From: Bdellovibrionales bacterium
Lineage (GTDB): Bacteria; Bdellovibrionota; Bdellovibrionia; Bdellovibrionales; UBA1609
DNA length: 64,000 nt
Reading direction: 5' to 3'
Assembly: GCA_965219095.1 (NCBI GenBank)
Contig: CBDCMT010000001.1
Coordinates: 1,312,001 to 1,376,000, forward strand
Shown: positions 24,653 to 33,347 of the stretch, one piece after another
Position numbering within the stretch: position 1 is the first letter of the stretch
How the letters are laid out: every line of letters starts with the position of its first letter
Notes under the pieces: model-generated
Databases searched by the model: none
What the model was told of the DNA's origin: nothing
What the model saw: the letters and a program-made list of their open reading frames with translations, nothing else
Position numbers and translations under genes: made by a program

Positions 24653-26185
24653 GTAACTGCTCACCTACATTGTTCAGTTATCCCTAACTTTAGACCTGTT
24701 TTAAGATAAAAGTCTTGCTCTTACAGATTTTCTTTTAAATACTTTTTTCAAATGACAATAAATAAGACCTCCATCAGAAATGAGATTGAAAATATAAGAA
24801 GTGACTTTGATAAGCTTGCAAAGAAAGGTTCTGTGCCTACTGAGATTTCTGTGATTGTTGAATCTCTCTTTAAGGTTGTGAACATTCTGATTGTTGTGTT
24901 TTTAGAAAAACAGGTTCGAAAAAATTCCAGCAACAGCGGTCTTCCTCCTTCGCAAGATTTTAGTCGTCAAGGGAATCGTAATAAGAAAGCTAGTGGGAGT
25001 CAAAAAAAGGGCTCTAGACTTGATAACAGTAAAGATACAAACAGTGAGGAGACTGTCTCTCCCTCAGAGTGTTCTCAGTGTGGGATGTGTTTAAAGACAG
25101 CAGAGGTAAAAAGCCTTGAGAAGCGTAAAAAGATTGATATTTTTTATGAAATTCAGACCCATACTGTAACTTCTGAAGTTAAGGATTGTCCCTCATGTGG
25201 AGCTAGAAATAAAGGTCAATTCCCTAAAGGTATGAGTGGTCCTCTTCAGTATGGTATAGGCATTAGAGCTTCCATCATCAATTTCATTATAGTTCAGATG
25301 CTGTCTTTTAGAGCGTGTTGGGGAACATTACATGGGGCTTATAGGTCGAATGATTTCTCCTGCAGTTATGTTGAGATACATTGCTGAATTAGGAGAGTTT
25401 CTTAAAAGTTGGGAAGAGCAGATGAAAGAAAAGATACTTGAATCAGAGGTCATTCATGTTGATGAGACCTCTATGAGGGTTAAGGGTAAAAACTACTGGA
25501 TTCATACTTATAGTTCAGGAGAATTAGTCTTGCAGTTTCTCCACCTTTCAGGTGGAAAGGAAGCCATAAAAGATATTGGTCTCTTGGATAGATATGCAGG
25601 AGTGCTTGTGCATGATTGTTGGAGTCCTTACTTTTGTTATGATAAGATAACTCATGCTTTGTGTGTGGCTCACCTTTTGAGAGAGCTTAAATTTATAGAA
25701 GAAAGCAATGGATTCAAATGGGCTATAAATCTCAAAAAACTTCTTAAAGAGACTGTGGAGTTAGTTCATAAAAAAGAGTCAAGAGTTCTGACTCAAAAAG
25801 AGTACGAAACTCTTCAGAGAAGGTATAGGAGTATTCTTACAAAAGGCTTAAAAGAGCTTCCAGAATTTCCTAAGAAAAATGGCAAGAAAGGACGAATAAA
25901 GCATACACAAGCTCAAAACCTTTGGCTGCGATTTAAAAAGTATGAAGCAGAAATACTGTGCTTTGCTAAAAGAAAGAACGTAGATCCTACTAATAACAGA
26001 GCTGAAAGAGATCTAAGAATGACTAAAGTGAAAAAGAAAGTGTCAGGGTGTTTCAGAACAGAAGAAATGGCGAAATATTTTTGTCGTATTACCAGCTATG
26101 TTAAAACAATGAGAAATAAAGGGTATTCTTCTTTAGAAGCCATCTCTATGGCTTTAAATAAAAACTTACGAGAGTGAGCAGTTAC
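24653..26185 (+). mobile_element. IS66-family element (single-ORF ISBst12-like), frameshifted, copy 1
   Basis: IR GTAACTGCTCAC / GTGAGCAGTTAC; KNSSNSGLPPS, CxxC pairs, HVDET, HDCW, C.AHLLREL, TNNRAERDLR; ORFs 24752-25387 and 25332-26177. Confidence 0.93.
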
Positions 26186-26463: not shown

Positions 26464-27534
26464 TTATTTTCTTGCACAACTGTAATTTATAGTATAGGAG
26501 CCAGGATTAAGATGTGTTTCAAAAGTGATCTTGTCTTTATCTTGATTCAAAGTAAATTTGACTTGAGGATTAGGCTTGATTTCAATATCATCTTTAAAGT
26601 CACCATTGTCGTTGACATCTACAGACGAACATTCTAGAAAGATCTTTCTTGTAAGATCCTTTATAGACTCTGTAATCCCATCTAAAACTGTTGTGTAATC
26701 AAGACTACAAATATTTAGAATTTTCCCTGGAAGAATACCGTTTATAGGATCATTTGTATTTGATAACATTTCATAAAATCTTCCTTTCGCTGTTGTGTTT
26801 CTGCAAGATTCTTGAGAGGGGCTAACAATAGAATGAAACTGAAAAACTTTACTGTTTCCAAGAATAGCAACTTTTCTACTGATAAATTTTTGAACCAAAG
26901 AGGGAGATCCGTTAGATTCATCATTATCTGATATAAGAATGGAAATAAAATGAGCGTCTAGTCTTAAAAGATCATTTTGTGGGTATCTATCTTTATTCTC
27001 AAGAAAATTAATTAATGACTTTATACCTTGGTGTTCAGAAAATGGCTTAACAGATAAAATGGTCTGCTCTAGTATTTCTTGTTTTTTTCTATCAGAATAA
27101 GAATCTTGGTTCTTTAAAACGTATTTTTTAAAGTTTGATTCATTCCAAATTAAAGGCGTCATATTATAATTATTATATGCACCATTTGTAGACTGAATAG
27201 CAATCCTCCAATCTATGTTGTCTGCATTGAGTTTTTGAATGAATATGTTGATTCTATTAGATAAATGTTTTCTTTCATTCCGCATAGAACCCGAAGCATC
27301 AATGATAAATAAAAAATCAACAGGAACGGTTTCTTTGATCGTAAAGCTTTTTATTTTTTCTACAAAATCATGAGTGGCTTGAAGATCAAGTTCGACCCTT
27401 GTTGTATTTTCTGCCTTATCGTCATTTCTTTGCCCAAAATTGGTTTCAGAACATGAATTAAATAAAAAGGGTAAAGGAATGGATAAGATGATAAGAAAAC
27501 TTATGAAAATCTTTCTTATATGAATCTTTTTCAT
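26464..27534 (-). CDS. vWA-domain putative lipoprotein
   Basis: Signal peptide ending FNSC; MIDAS motif FIIDASGSM; ILISDND. Confidence 0.8.
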   Translation of the reverse strand: MKKIHIRKIFISFLIILSIPLPFLFNSCSETNFGQRNDDKAENTTRVELDLQATHDFVEKIKSFTIKETVPVDFLFIIDASGSMRNERKHLSNRINIFIQKLNADNIDWRIAIQSTNGAYNNYNMTPLIWNESNFKKYVLKNQDSYSDRKKQEILEQTILSVKPFSEHQGIKSLINFLENKDRYPQNDLLRLDAHFISILISDNDESNGSPSLVQKFISRKVAILGNSKVFQFHSIVSPSQESCRNTTAKGRFYEMLSNTNDPINGILPGKILNICSLDYTTVLDGITESIKDLTRKIFLECSSVDVNDNGDFKDDIEIKPNPQVKFTLNQDKDKITFETHLNPGSYTINYSCARK

Positions 27535-27609
27535 ATCTTCTTTTTCGACAGAAATGTCTCAAACCTTTAGTCTAAACCTTGTGTTTGTTTCTTTATCTTT
27601 GTTCCAGCT

Positions 27610-28045
27610 ATGGAGATGCGTCCTATTCCAACACGCACCAGTCCCATCAAGACCAGCTCCTAATGACCGTTTTTGATTCGACTATCCGAGACCTTAATCC
27701 ACCTTTTTTAGAAGACAGATCATCTCATGGTTTTATTCCTTGTTTATCAGGTTCTATCCGACTAACGAGCTTTTTTTTAACTCACCGAAAAGTGATCTGA
27801 GTTTCCTGATAAACCGAACGATCTAAATCATCACTGTTGCTTGCCATCCTCTTCGGCATTTTTTTACTTTTCTTTAGAGGTTGTTTTATTTTTTTGTTTT
27901 TTTGTCATATCTTTTTTAAGTTTTTTGTCTCATCTTTATTTCTATTTCTATCACTCAGCTATCCGTGTCTACAGCAGGAGGATTATGTCACCATCTTACC
28001 TTCTGCCCACATCCCATCTGGACTTCATTAACTTATACATTCAGT
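27610..28045 (-). ncRNA. Candidate bridge/seek RNA region in the IS110 right end
   Basis: Non-coding and locally GC-richer, with several stems and three CGGATAG motifs; function inferred from IS110 biology. Confidence 0.5.
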
Positions 28046-28544
28046 TGTCGAGCCCGAAGCTCATGGATTAAATACCTCCTTAACATCTCACACCCACTTC
28101 TCGTAATTGAACCTAACCTCTTCATCTCTCCACTTGAAAATTCCCTAGGAATTAAACCTAAATAACTTCCCCACTTATGAGCATCCGGAAAACGAGACAT
28201 TTCATCAAGAACTGCTATTAACCCGAGTTTCGACTTTTTTCAGGGCTAAAGGCTCTAGCTAATATAAACAAATACCTCAGACTTTTGTAAGATTTTCTTG
28301 AAAAAGCAACTTACAAGAAAAAACACCTTGAGAGTTATAAAAAAACATACAAGGAGGTCTAAGATGTTTAATTCTAATTATATCATATCAATTTATGTTC
28401 TTGTCGATGATTTTTTAACCCCTCTCATACAGCAGCATCCAGAACTGGTTTGCTAAAAATAAAGGAGGTTTTTCTTGTGCTATGTCTCCCAGCGAAATTG
28501 TCACTCTTTATCTTACTTTTCCAAAGTTCTGGCTTTAGGAATTT

Positions 28545-30065
28545 GCCTCCTCAAAAGAATCTGTGGGTTCCCGGAGGTTCTGGCAGTTTTCCAAGGTTAT
28601 GATATAAGGCGATTTTTATAGCTTTAGAGGTTCTAAAGCCGTAAGATTTTCTCATAGTGAGTTTTACTTTGTTGTTTAAACCCTCTACAATCCCTGAGGA
28701 GAAGGTTTTTTTAGCCTTGAAGTAATTAAGAATAAGTAGCTTATGTCTTCGTATGGTTTTTGCTTCTCTTTTCATAGGTTCAATTTTTGAAAGCATGACT
28801 CGTCTCGTCCAACTGTCTATAAATTTACCAGCCCAAGTTGGTGAAACATAGGTCCATAACTGTCGGAAGTCTTCTTTTAAAAAATAACAGCGGATACTTT
28901 TTAAATTGTACTGTATTAAATGCCTTAATTTTACTTTTTCATAAGATTTTAAATTTTCTGCATTTTTTAACAAGGGCCATCTAGCTTTTGTTAAAAGGGG
29001 TTCATACCCATCTTCTTTCATTTTTTTGTGTTCTGAAGCTCTCACTTCGTCTAAAGCCTTATTGAGTCTTGCTACGATATGAAACCGATCTAATATATTC
29101 AAAGCTTGACTTGCCCTTTCCTTTATTACTTTTAAATAGGGCTTCCACATATCAGAACACACAAACTGTATATCTTTTGACTTCTCTCCTAGTAAATCAA
29201 AAAACTTGTTGAAACTCTCCTCTGTTCTTTTTTCTCCTATCCATAGCAAACGAACACTTTCTTTGCTTATTTCATAGACTAAGGTGAGATACTGATGGTT
29301 CTTTTTCCATTGTATTTCATCTACACCTATAGCTTGTATTCCCTTTAAAACCCTTTGTTTTAAACCATATTCTACGACCCATTCTACCAAAGCATAGACC
29401 TGATTCCAACTGACATGAAACTTACAAGAAACCTCTTTCCAAGACAGGTGACGACACCAGTCAGCTAAGTACTTCATGTAAAAAATTGTTAGGTTTTTCT
29501 TCCCATCTGCCCAAGGTAAATACTCAACTTTTACTCCACAGCAAGAACAATTAACTCTTCTTACAAAATAAACAAAAAACACCCTGTAACTTAAAATAGG
29601 AAGGGATTCAAAGTCCCGTGATGATTTACTGCTGTCATACACTGAACAGGGCTTCTTACAAACACTACAAAAAGCTTGGCCATTTTTACGAGCCTTAATA
29701 GGAACATTAATTGACTTTCTATCTTTTGAAAAATAAATGTCTCCGTATACAAAAGACTTCCATCTTAAACAATCATTTAGTATAGTCTTCAAAAGCATCT
29801 CTTCCCTCCTTTTTTTTTTTTTTTGAATAACATTTTAAGGCATCTGGGAAGTAGGTGCTTCTTTTTTAAAATTTTAATGTAACACAGCAAATAAAAGCAA
29901 ATAAAATGAATGTTTTTGAGTTCAATCACCGGAGGTGATAGAGGCCAGTAAGGGCCTCAAAGAACTCAAAAATACAAGATAGAATGTCTTACTCTTACTT
30001 TGATTAATATGAGCTCTTTTGGGGGATTTCTACTACTTTTCACCCACAGATTCCCGGGAGGAGCC
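28545..30065 (-). mobile_element. ISL3 element (copy 2), 8-bp TSD AGGAATTT
   Basis: Same termini as copy 1; TSD 28537-28544 = 30066-30073. Confidence 0.95.
28551..29798 (-). CDS. ISL3 transposase
   Basis: 415-aa ORF with ISL3 motifs. Confidence 0.95.
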   Translation of the reverse strand: MLLKTILNDCLRWKSFVYGDIYFSKDRKSINVPIKARKNGQAFCSVCKKPCSVYDSSKSSRDFESLPILSYRVFFVYFVRRVNCSCCGVKVEYLPWADGKKNLTIFYMKYLADWCRHLSWKEVSCKFHVSWNQVYALVEWVVEYGLKQRVLKGIQAIGVDEIQWKKNHQYLTLVYEISKESVRLLWIGEKRTEESFNKFFDLLGEKSKDIQFVCSDMWKPYLKVIKERASQALNILDRFHIVARLNKALDEVRASEHKKMKEDGYEPLLTKARWPLLKNAENLKSYEKVKLRHLIQYNLKSIRCYFLKEDFRQLWTYVSPTWAGKFIDSWTRRVMLSKIEPMKREAKTIRRHKLLILNYFKAKKTFSSGIVEGLNNKVKLTMRKSYGFRTSKAIKIALYHNLGKLPEPPGTHRFF

Positions 30066-30848
30066 AGGAATTTTAAAGCCTTTTACCAGTTTGCAAAAGT
30101 CTATCTTAAATCTTATTTTCCTAAAATGTTGTCTTACTCCCGATTTGTGAACATCAAAAAAGACATGGCTTTTTTGATGTTTCTTTTCTTGACAAGCCTT
30201 ATGAGTAAAACCACCGGCATATCATTTATTGATTCCACATCGATTTTTCTTCAAAAATAAAAGAATAGGACAAAATAAGGTGTTTCAAAAGTTAGCTAAA
30301 AAGAGGCAAAAGTAGTATGGGCTGGTTCTTCGGATTTAAACTCCATATTGTTATCAATCACCTAGGAGAGCTTTTAAGTTTTACCTTAACTCCGGGAAAT
30401 GTAGATGATCGAAAGCTAAGTTATGGATTTATAGTAAAGGGCTGATGGGAAAACTCTTTGGGGACAGAGGTTATATTTCATCAGATCTTTTTAAACTTCT
30501 TTTAAAGAAGGGAGTTAAGCTTATTACAAACGTCAAATTAAATATGGAGAATAAATTGATTCCCTTATTTGACAAGTTGATGTTGAAAAAACGTTCTGTT
30601 GTGGAGGTTAGTGATTGGAGTGTTAAAAGGAGAGTTTCATCTTGAGCATTCTCGCCATCGTAGCCCACAAAACTTTGTCATCAATCTTTTAGGTACTCTC
30701 ATCTCTTACTTGCTTAAAACCTAAAAAACCCTCCATTCAACTTAAAACTCAAAACAGGAGCTTCTGAACAATATATAAAAGTCGAAACTCGGGTTATTAA
30801 TAAAATTGAAGTCAAAGACTGAACTTCCCCCAAAAAAGTGGACAGTTT

Positions 30849-31715
30849 TTATGTTCTTAAAGCCCTCCTTTGTTTAAATTCTTTTGGGCTCATGTATTTC
30901 AAGGAAGAATGCATTCTTACCTTGTTATACCAATCCATGTAAATTGCAATTTTTTTTTCCAACTCTTCCTTTGTTGTACAGTCTTTGTATTCCAGTTCAT
31001 CCTTCAACGTATGGAAAAAGCTCTCCACAAACGCATTATCATAACAATTTCCTTTCCTAGACATAGATTGCTTGAGGCCAAAGAATTTCAATTCTTTTCT
31101 AAACCCTTCACAACAATATTGAACCCCTTGATCCGAGTGGATTATCAAGCCCTCTAAGTTCCCAGAAACAGATTGGACTGCGGCTCTCAGAGCCTGTTTT
31201 GAATGAACCCCGTCCAAGCTCTCACAGAGCTTCCAAGACTTAATCTCTCGATTATAGACATCTAAAAATACAACCAAATACAGAAATTTATCTCTAAAAG
31301 GAATATAGGTTAAATCCGAACACCATACCTGGTTTTCTTTTCCTGCTTGGCTCTGTCCTGTCTTAAACAACCGAGGAGACTTAATCATGAGAGGGTTATT
31401 CTTTGTTGTTCTAGGAACATAGGGTTTTTTCTGACGGGCACTGAGATTCTTTAGTTTCATAATTCGAGCTACTTTGTTTTCTCCAGCACTCACTCCGCAA
31501 CGCTTTAATTCCCTATACACCCTGGGGGAACCATAACAGCCTTTATTTTTTTTAAAAATAGATTCTATGTTTTTCTCCAGATTTTTATCCTTTTCAAGCT
31601 TTCCCCTGGTTTTTAAAAAACTATAAAAACCAGAACGAGATCCTCTTAATAATTCGCAAATGCGAAGCACTGGATGCCCTTTCTCTTTTACATAAAACAT
31701 AGCCTTAAATCTCAT
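30849..31715 (-). CDS. IS3 transposase OrfB
   Basis: Same protein as 8267-9133. Confidence 0.95.
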   Translation of the reverse strand: MRFKAMFYVKEKGHPVLRICELLRGSRSGFYSFLKTRGKLEKDKNLEKNIESIFKKNKGCYGSPRVYRELKRCGVSAGENKVARIMKLKNLSARQKKPYVPRTTKNNPLMIKSPRLFKTGQSQAGKENQVWCSDLTYIPFRDKFLYLVVFLDVYNREIKSWKLCESLDGVHSKQALRAAVQSVSGNLEGLIIHSDQGVQYCCEGFRKELKFFGLKQSMSRKGNCYDNAFVESFFHTLKDELEYKDCTTKEELEKKIAIYMDWYNKVRMHSSLKYMSPKEFKQRRALRT

Positions 31716-32017
31716 TTCAGGATTTCCTTTGAAAAAAAAGCCGCTGCCTCTTTCAATATACCTACACTCCGCCTCTCATAGACCAGCTCCTTTTTTAACC
31801 TCTTTATTTCCTCCAATGCCGAAGCCAAGTCATGGGAAGCTTGTCTTTCTACTTCAGGCTTTAGAAAACGCTTCCAAGAGCTTATCACTTGGAAATTTCT
31901 CAGTCCTAGCTTCTCTGAGGCTTCCTTTGCACCTATTTCCTCTGCCAATTCAATGGCTTGCTTTTTAAACTCTTCCGAGTACTGTTTTACTTTTTCCATT
32001 CTTTCTTTTACCTCCAT
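31712..32017 (-). CDS. IS3 OrfA
   Basis: Same protein as 9130-9435. Confidence 0.9.
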   Translation of the reverse strand: MEVKERMEKVKQYSEEFKKQAIELAEEIGAKEASEKLGLRNFQVISSWKRFLKPEVERQASHDLASALEEIKRLKKELVYERRSVGILKEAAAFFSKEILK

Positions 32018-32209
32018 TTTATGGAGACTTTAAGAGAAAATTGACTGTCCGCAGAAACAGGGGAAGTTCAGCTTACCTCACTTCTTCCTAAATACTCTGA
32101 TAAGGTTTCTATAAGTCTAGCAGTGTTAATCTTTAACCTCTTTACATACTCGCCCCCCTTGTCTTTTATACACAGAGAAGATGTCTCCTTATGGAAATCA
32201 ATCCCTATA

Positions 32210-33347
32210 TAGTGCTTCCGTTTAGGTTTTCAGTTTCCTAAGATAGAGAAGTTATCAGTTATCAAAGTTTCTAATTTAGATCTGTGTTTTCGTATTCCTC
32301 TAAAAAATTGACTTAAACTTCCCTTGAAATCGTCATAGTTTTCATAATATCGATTCGCCGTGACCTCTTTTTTCATAAACTTCCAAAGCCTTTCTATAGG
32401 ATTTAAATTCGGTGAGTACGGAGGAAGATAAATAAGCTTTATATTCAACTCTTTCGCTAACTTCTTGACAGACTTCGATCTATTGTATCCGGCCCCATCT
32501 AAGATAAGATGAATCTCTTTTTCATCGGAATACTTCTTAATGAATATGATAGAGCATATCACATAGAAAAACTTCGTTAACTGTCTTATAACTCCTGACT
32601 ACCGTCTTCAAACTATTGATCTCAATAGCTCCACAAACATTCACTCTTTTTCTCCAGCCTGAATTGGTCTTCACTTCAAACTTCTTACCCTCTCTTATCC
32701 AACCATATGAAATCGTAGGGCCCCACTCAGGATGTGTGGAATCAGCAAAGTAAACAGGACCGTCTTTCTTCTTAATTCTCTTGTATTTACGCACAAACTT
32801 TTTCTGCTCTTCTTTCTTTGCCTTACCCGGTATCGCTGTGGCTTTTTTATAAGAAAAACCAAGGCGATGGAGAAGATCAATTACACCACTTGTTAAAGTA
32901 CGTAACACCAAAATTCTCCTCAATGAACTGAATAAGGGCCTGTGATGACGGAAAAATTCTTTTCTCTAATTCCTTTAAAAGCATTTTCTCCTCTTTCTTA
33001 GTTAAAAAGGACCTTTTAGGGTTATAATTGTCGTTGATTAAGCACTCTATCCCACCTTTGTTATAACGATCTCTACAGGCTCTTATCGTGCCCTCATCAA
33101 TGAAAAGAAAGCAGGCAATATCTTTACACAACTTACCTTTATCTAAATGGAGGATTGTCATAATCCTTTTTACGTATTTAAGATTTTTCTCTAGAGATAG
33201 TTCATAGAGTAAATCTTTTCGCTCTTTTTTTGATAGAAACCCTGACATATGAAACTATTTTTAAAAATAAATGACTTTTTATCAAGGCCTTAGAATAAAA
33301 ACTAGACCTCAACTCAAAAAAAACGGAAAACCTAAACGGAAGCACTA
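32210..33347 (-). mobile_element. IS630-family type A, full length, doubly frameshifted; TA TSD
   Basis: IR TAGTGCTTCCGTTTAGGTTTTC; three consecutive ORFs 32877-33248, 32537-32923, 32230-32562. Confidence 0.93.

Follow-up and report, generated by a model that had tools for sequence, protein, structure and literature searches.

A probable third guide loop and long flanking duplications in a clade of IS1111-type IS110 elements

Comparison of sequences leads us to lean slightly towards the view that a clade of IS1111-type IS110 elements encodes a guide RNA with three loops and inserts at two separate target half-sites. The comparison starts from a decayed IS110 element of the IS1111 type, whose right end lies in a window of 64,000 nucleotides (the whole stretch of DNA analysed) from a Bdellovibrionales bacterium. 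This copy is dead and non-functional, so that function was analysed in its relatives, and the interest of the case lies with the intact relatives rather than with the copy in the window. The features of the region are listed in Table 1.

Table 1. Features of the decayed IS110 right end and its surroundings (positions in the window)
Feature	Position	Strand	Basis
Unrelated multi-copy repeat cutting off the IS110 element on its 5' side	28215..28536		about 30 further copies in the genome
IS110-family transposase gene remnant, part of the Tnp domain with the FSSG serine loop	28063..28233	-	PF02371 match, alignment
Fusion point, codons L-I-H into the conserved right-end motif ATCCATG	28062..28070	-	translation, protein and right-end alignments
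Loop A, the extra loop: 5' strand 28020-28012, GTG/CAC stem with inner hairpin, putative 3' guide ATAGCTG (27962-27956)	27954..28020	-	
A-rich linker between loop A and the two-loop unit	27824..27953	-	in all aligned right ends
Canonical two-loop bridge RNA unit (loops B and C), closed by GATCGTT / AACGGTC	27665..27823	-	
Loop B, predicted target-binding: closing 10-bp stem, 5' guide ACTTTTCGG (27793-27785), hairpin, 3' guide TTAGTCGGA (27765-27757)	27742..27814	-	
Loop C, predicted donor-binding: 5' guide ATAAAACCA (27736-27728), GAGA/TCTC stem and hairpin, 3' guide ATAGTCG (27685-27679)	27677..27736	-	
Right subterminal inverted-repeat arm, right donor arm ATAGC, core TG (27606-27605)	27605..27622	-	end common to six copies and homologues

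The transposase remnant in the window has 62 codons left, its 5' part and last ~65 codons being gone, and retains only part of PF02371; it is 80-82% identical to the full-length two-domain transposases P0001-P0003. That ~65 codons are missing follows from the direct fusion of the L-I-H codons to the right-end motif, presumably the result of a microhomology deletion. The repeat on the 5' side is itself split by an ISL3 element at 28537-30065 (PF01610), and its joint around that element (28536-30066) has 8 shared letters and is the same in four sequencing runs, all contig sets of one study. At the other side the first flank base is 27604. A left-end arm matching the right subterminal arm is seen only in homologues, the window keeping the right arm alone. 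The host genome (G000) holds six right ends of the element; neither a full transposase nor a left end was found there, and no local duplication was found around the window copy and its five sister ends, within 20 kb or genome-wide.

Right-end remnants of the element with ragged 5' ends lie in the same genome at C2:1811587-1811937, C2:1590057-1590237, C2:16598-16766, C2:731708-731792, C2:1766356-1766475 and C1:318050-318224. Two of the remnants have an identical right flank, and at least one is interrupted by a copy of the insertion sequence that ends at about 26190 in the window. The right end in the window is surrounded by a dense cluster of insertion-sequence genes (24752-26177, 28551-29798 and 30849-33248), of which only ISL3 is confirmed by Pfam; those at 24752-26177 and 30849-33248 we take to be insertion-sequence genes from their translations. 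A gene for a secreted-looking protein of 356 aa (26464-27534, minus strand) lies 70 bp past the right end, and DNA paralogous to it occurs at C2:39235 and C2:1712336. Many near-identical partial PF01548 matches without matching PF02371 are found at 17 places of this genome, possibly as another decayed element. A promoter scan of the region gave one weak site, equal to chance expectation, Rfam gave no match in the window, and a DNA search of 40 relatives returned weak matches only, in the A-rich linker.

An earlier note on this DNA had read the right end as three modules, each running from AGAT through a stem to CGGATAG. The heptamer indeed occurs three times on the minus strand (27965-27959, 27760-27754, 27688-27682) and nowhere else in the window. 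This count is ordinary (mean of 1.36 per shuffled window, with 15 of 100 shuffles reaching three); what carries weight is that the three are clustered in 284 bp and are found again in homologues. That note had also placed correctly the inner hairpin of each module, a stem of 10 bp (27814-27805/27751-27742) and the arms GATCGTT (27823-27817) and AACGGTC (27671-27665). The module boundaries did not hold up, as AGAT is not conserved as a start in the homologues and CGGATAG falls in a different register in modules A and C than in module B: in loops A and C it comprises the stem end, GG and the first four letters of the donor guide, in loop B it lies after the target guide and supplies the core-pairing and handshake letters. 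Folding of the single sequence was no better than that of shuffles (z -1.06 for the whole region and +0.23 to -1.04 for its parts), and the RNA structure presented here is therefore based on comparison and not on energy.

The relatives are IS110 elements by their full-length transposases with PF01548 (DEDD) and PF02371 (Tnp, conserved serine), in which D6, E50, D88, D91 and S258 are kept in every covered alignment row. TATGG.. / ..CCATA arms and element lengths of 1.64-2.02 kb place them in the IS1111 type. Their transposases are 35-58% identical to P0001, and their right ends are ~480-900 nt long. L054 and L063 have reading frames free of interruptions. The homologue alignment comprised 27 homologues and the window fragment, from which 17 metagenome loci were fetched; genome searches in the order, family, class and phylum of the host gave clade members in eight genomes, and extra copies were taken from G240, G266, G355 and G581. 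Additional clade members were not found in the family- and order-level genome searches, nor was a close transposase found in viral contigs, plasmids or phages. The right-end pattern occurred in 93 stretches of viral contigs, and a transposase in none of the 97 loci checked (these 93 and four genome matches). Many matches to CCATAAATGGA in G266 were rejected as clade right ends, as they sit within another repeated element. Twenty non-redundant homologous right ends and the window entered the loop analysis, which excluded the truncated L030, L036, L039 and L058, near-identical sister copies and the distant L059; L056 was treated separately.

Loops A, B and C are present in the same order in 21 of the 22 complete right ends of the clade, with 210-312 nt between loops A and C (21 right ends); the loop-A pattern included a special case for L038 with its atypical stem. 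Bridge RNAs and seekRNAs are defined by two loops, and the clade has three. The third guide suspected in the earlier note is thus borne out insofar as a conserved guide-type loop belongs to this IS1111-type right-end RNA (21/22), and fails insofar as three equivalent modules or a mini guide array were envisaged. Nor is its first module an unrelated insertion, being present in 21 of 22 complete right ends and found by a model of the donor loop. A TIGR-like array of equivalent guides was also considered and rejected, since there are three units with unequal spacing and distinct matches.

Loops A and C follow a common plan of nine letters, one spacer, a short stem of the GTGA/TCAC type with a hairpin, G and a purine, and ATA(G/A). 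RNAalifold, applied to an unguided alignment, gave the loop A stem, in which three pairs showed 1, 4 and 5 two-sided changes. When the anchors were set by hand, pairs one to three of this stem held in 20/20 right ends and pair four in 15/20. On the whole alignment the program recovered the inner stems of loops A and B, and neither the loop C stem nor the outer stem GATCGTT / AACGGTC, which was judged by eye in the alignment. The loop C stem is 85.8% paired on an alignment of its own compared to 64.5% when shuffled, and loop B is supported by flank covariation, by compensatory changes in its inner stem and by the fold. A covariance model built on loop C alone returned nine loop-A matches in a row right after its 21 loop-C matches, with rough E-values of 0.02-0.9, and did not match the loop A of the window. 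We are highly confident that the third loop is real and that it is a donor half-guide. Two further motifs are conserved in the homologous right ends, CCAT(A/G)G upstream of loop A (28068-28062 in the window) and (A/C)CGA in the A-rich linker (about 27855-27850).

The three loops appear to read different DNA: loop B the target, loop C both donor arms, and loop A only the right donor arm with the core. For the guide tests the donor junction was rebuilt from both ends of the homologues and matches were compared with permutations across elements, the p-values ignoring kinship. Covariation of loops with insertion sites, which the earlier note had proposed as a check, was found between the 3' strand of loop B and the left flank; loop C covaries with the donor. 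The 5' guide of loop C agrees with the left donor arm at positions 1-5 in 71/80 comparisons (60.0 permuted, p 1e-4, n=16), and its 3' strand follows the G/A variation of the right arm in 20/20; loop A is consequently not the sole right-arm guide. For the 3' guide of loop B and the left flank the agreement is 35/64 (23.6 permuted, p 4e-4, n=16). Where loop B has CCGGG the junction ends in CC (8/8), and where it has CCGGA in a single C (8/8), that is, an extra G in the loop goes with a junction shifted one base further on. By these matches loop C is the predicted donor loop and loop B the predicted target loop, whose 3' strand would read the site joined to the left end, always CCGAT. The 5' guide of loop B agrees with the right flank at position 5 alone (14/19 against 7.4 permuted, p 0.0017, one of five positions tested), positions 1-5 jointly being not significant (p 0.37). 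One position of this strand thus seems to track the right-end site, GA followed by A/T.

The 3' heptamer of loop A is identical to the element's own right arm and core in 18 of 20 right ends, the other two showing one A/G change; in the window, too, it equals the right donor arm and core, and the 5' strand is unmatched. Variants that track the element end include ATAACTG, ATAAGTG and ATAGGTG and represent about three or four independent changes, counted by eye on a tree with weakly supported deep forks. At positions 4-5 the agreement with the own end reaches 39/40 (24.9 permuted, p 5e-5). Neither the right flank, tried in seven registers (p of at least 0.2), nor the left donor arm (39/144 against 39.8) is matched by the 5' strand, and both tests reject it as a guide to these sites. 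With a 3' strand that matches the right end and a 5' strand that matches nothing tested, we interpret loop A as a right-donor half-guide.

Six assembled genomes contain 11 copies with both ends on one contig; in ten of these the element lies between direct repeats that adjoin its two ends. The repeats are 80, 90, 128, about 130, 242, 304, about 341, 470, about 514 and 519 bp long (only 122 bp of the 470-bp repeat being kept on the right), and the duplicated host segments span 56-519 bp when cross-contig pairs are included. The six genomes belong to four families, and in G581 (four copies) and G266 (three copies) every copy has its own host segment. The duplicated segment ends at CCGAT in 9/9 and a further 2/2 cases, against a background of 0.0004-0.003 per base for this motif, and starts with GA(A/T) in seven of eight located left copies (three were found by a pattern requiring GA). 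The donor core TG stands at both junctions, and neither target site has TG. What is duplicated is host gene sequence. The copies of rpoZ and priA to the left of the element are complete and their 3' parts recur to its right, so that the element can sit inside either gene without destroying it.

The eleventh copy, L062, has no duplication on its contig. The genome is fragmented at the element; 75 bp of the right flank of L062 match a left flank found on a different contig, and another such pair of flanks in this genome matches over 49 bp. The segments concerned are about 83 and 56 bp long, and for one left flank and two right flanks of this genome no partner was found. Insertion into a single site with a shared core and without duplication is not what the assembled copies display, as they have two sites, but none of 11 two-ended metagenome contigs carries the duplication. 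Several of these have very short flanks; L033 and L046 have long flanks and no duplication, and in L040, L042 and L045, where even a short one would show, none was seen. Chimeric assembly is a likely candidate reason for this absence. In L038 another left end begins about 220 bp into the right flank, the pattern expected of a collapsed duplication. Beside 16 distant IS110 genes, with element ends unmapped, no perfect flanking repeat of this kind was found, and four of them have short or imperfect repeats nearby. Untidy junctions occur in L054, L057, L234/L223 and L235/L229. Taken together, the long duplication is very probably a property of insertion in this clade.

Some junctions deserve separate description. 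In L060 / L116 (G266, contig C11) the junction of the right end falls inside a CRISPR-like repeat-spacer array, whose last units, with the adjoining region, belong to the duplicated segment. At the left junction of L234 (G355) eight extra bases, TGCC twice, stand between duplicated segment and left end, as if iterated. The last bases before the left end of L054 differ from the right target copy and fit the loop B guide better; perhaps they were carried over from an earlier site. From 297 to 80 bp upstream of L055 there is a tandem copy of 217 bp, containing the duplicated segment as well as ~100 bp from the start of the left end.

The one relative without loop A, L056, has loops B and C. Its junctions carry TG at the left and the target's CG at the right, its flanks rebuild one CCGAT site, and no duplication was found in 126 bp of left and 414 bp of right flank. 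The tree places L056 neither inside nor outside the three-loop group with strong support, and the association of loop A with duplication thus comes from one relative with a left flank of 126 bp.

A sequence of events that would account for these patterns begins with a recombinase dimer on loop B and another on loop C, which would pass one donor strand into CCGAT. Donor and target cores being unequal, the second exchange would stall there. A second complex, with loop A for the right donor arm and the 5' guide of loop B for the short GA(A/T) site, would then join the other strand up to several hundred bases away, and host fill-in of the two long gaps would produce the duplication. Staggered DDE transposition makes target duplications by fill-in on a small scale. 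IS621 cuts one strand just past the core and the other strand on the far side of the core (PMC11208158); with cuts of this type flanking the core, every donor 3' end would carry it. The donor core at both junctions is then what one expects if each 3' end was joined separately, one per strand, at sites 56-519 bp apart, and we infer that the two element ends were joined at two separate sites. Loop A would be the natural guide for the second transfer because it is the only loop to pair with the right arm all the way through the donor core, and the case for its driving the joining at the second site seems to us about evenly balanced. We would put at even chances the broader proposition that the clade gained a third loop and an unequal donor core, and that RNA guides the joining of the two element ends to separate sites, at a distance of tens to hundreds of bases from each other.

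Alternatively, loop A may serve excision, forming with loop C a donor-donor pair that recognises the integrated ends and forms the circle, the duplications arising separately, when a one-ended transfer into CCGAT is followed by repair in the host or by template switching, with 1-3 bases of microhomology (G, GA, GAA). We regard this as possible, if somewhat doubtful. A full guide for right arm and core beside an unmatched 5' strand would fit a junction with a variable left side, and donor-loop-only excision has been shown for IS621 (PMC13626964; 10.64898/2026.08.31.748434), although L056, which is without loop A, is also without a second site. As to the repair step, the right junction starts with G in 37/37 ends listed, though most end patterns required G; the donor continues with GA, and in L057 GA is absent from the target. 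Repair does not, however, predict that the third flank base follows the loop B guide (14/19). By sequence alone, an excision role of loop A and its role in a second transfer are not separable.

It is a good deal less plausible that loop A, as a degenerated second donor loop, has no catalytic role and is a decoy or regulator, either titrating the transposase or mimicking the right end in DNA or single-stranded DNA form, with duplications arising independently. Neither the sites tested nor the left donor arm are matched by its 5' strand, a long A-rich linker sets it apart from loops B and C, and L056 manages without it; yet, among elements whose transposases are only 35-58% identical to P0001, it follows the element end and its core letter by letter, which implies that pairing was selected, and the compensatory changes in its stem imply selection for donor pairing. 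We consider it very improbable that the flanking repeats are assembly artefacts or later rearrangements in a clade that inserts without duplication like other IS110s. Against this stand a host segment that differs at every copy within one genome (G581 with four, G266 with three), the identical CCGAT end in 11/11 cases, a donor core at each of the two junctions, the occurrence in six genomes that represent four families, and 16 distant IS110 genes without a perfect repeat of this kind; in its favour are the lack of the repeat in all 11 metagenome contigs and the stray partial duplication of the left end beside L055.

Insertion at two sites under a three-loop RNA would have consequences beyond this clade. 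Bridge recombinases are under development as scarless editors, and their second-strand completion and excision are debated in papers of 2025-2026. If the two-site reading is correct, a natural clade shows that the reactions at the two ends need not be coupled and can each have their own guide, which would offer a testable handle on half-match off-target events and an RNA-programmable model for long variable target duplications; RNA-guided insertion with such a duplication could, moreover, keep an essential gene whole. The evidence suggests an unusual mode of insertion able to spare the target gene.

Our literature search, which covered few subscription journals and the text of papers rather than figures or supplements, found neither a three-loop bridge RNA nor long flanking duplications of IS110 elements, and the clade may already be drawn in the figures or supplements of bridge-RNA surveys. 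Durrant et al. describe the two-loop bridge RNA and note that many IS1111 RNAs have a donor region with multiple loops (PMC11208160). Deviating structures are reported in a survey of 32,190 bridge RNAs, which in its available parts does not mention a third loop (10.64898/2026.10.21.760802); the available parts of PMC13604230, 10.1101/2025.05.14.653916, PMC12288879 and PMC12045711 contain no three-loop case either. According to Siddiquee et al., target duplication is apparently not characteristic of the IS110 or IS1111 family (PMC11187229).

IS621 and ISCro4 (IS622) share with the clade the DEDD and serine recombinase (PMC11208160, PMC11208158, PMC13626964, 10.1101/2025.05.14.653916), the left guide on the 5' strand, and the right guide, core and handshake letters on the 3' strand, and the 7+2+5 donor layout of IS621 fits loop C of the clade (PMC11208158). 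They have two loops, one target site and a core common to donor and target, whereas the clade has three loops, apparently two target half-sites, a donor core unlike the target core and a long duplication. The IS1111 elements ISEc11, ISPa11 and ISKpn4 with their seekRNAs resemble the clade in their subterminal inverted repeats, the short left end and the guide RNA in a long non-coding right end (PMC11187229); the clade differs by its additional donor half-loop and right ends of about 480-900 nt.

Parallels to single steps of the proposed reaction come from side pathways of known elements. Direct one-strand transfer is reported for CazIS110-1 (10.1101/2025.10.25.684509), half-match recombination is documented for IS621 (10.64898/2026.08.31.748434), and half-match-linked duplication is reported within expanded IS110 loci (10.64898/2026.08.14.744561). 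These side reactions have in common with our model the transfer of one strand, the separate handling of the ends, donor-only complexes and local duplications; as described in the available parts of these papers, they involve two-loop RNAs, without a dedicated third loop or routine flanking duplication. Long variable direct repeats of 8-514 bp, comparable with the 56-519 bp of the clade, are known from IS1549 and IS1634 of the IS1634 family, for which the 2008 paper, in its available parts, notes that a mechanism had not yet been proposed; unlike the clade, these elements have DDE transposases, terminal repeats and no guide RNA (PMC2266710). TIGR-Tas arrays, finally, resemble the clade in the repetition of related stem-loop guide units along one locus, and the paper describing them treats the IS110 RNA as a single two-stem unit (PMC12045711). 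The guides of a TIGR array are many and equivalent (PMC12045711), however, whereas the three loops of the clade appear to have different, fixed jobs.
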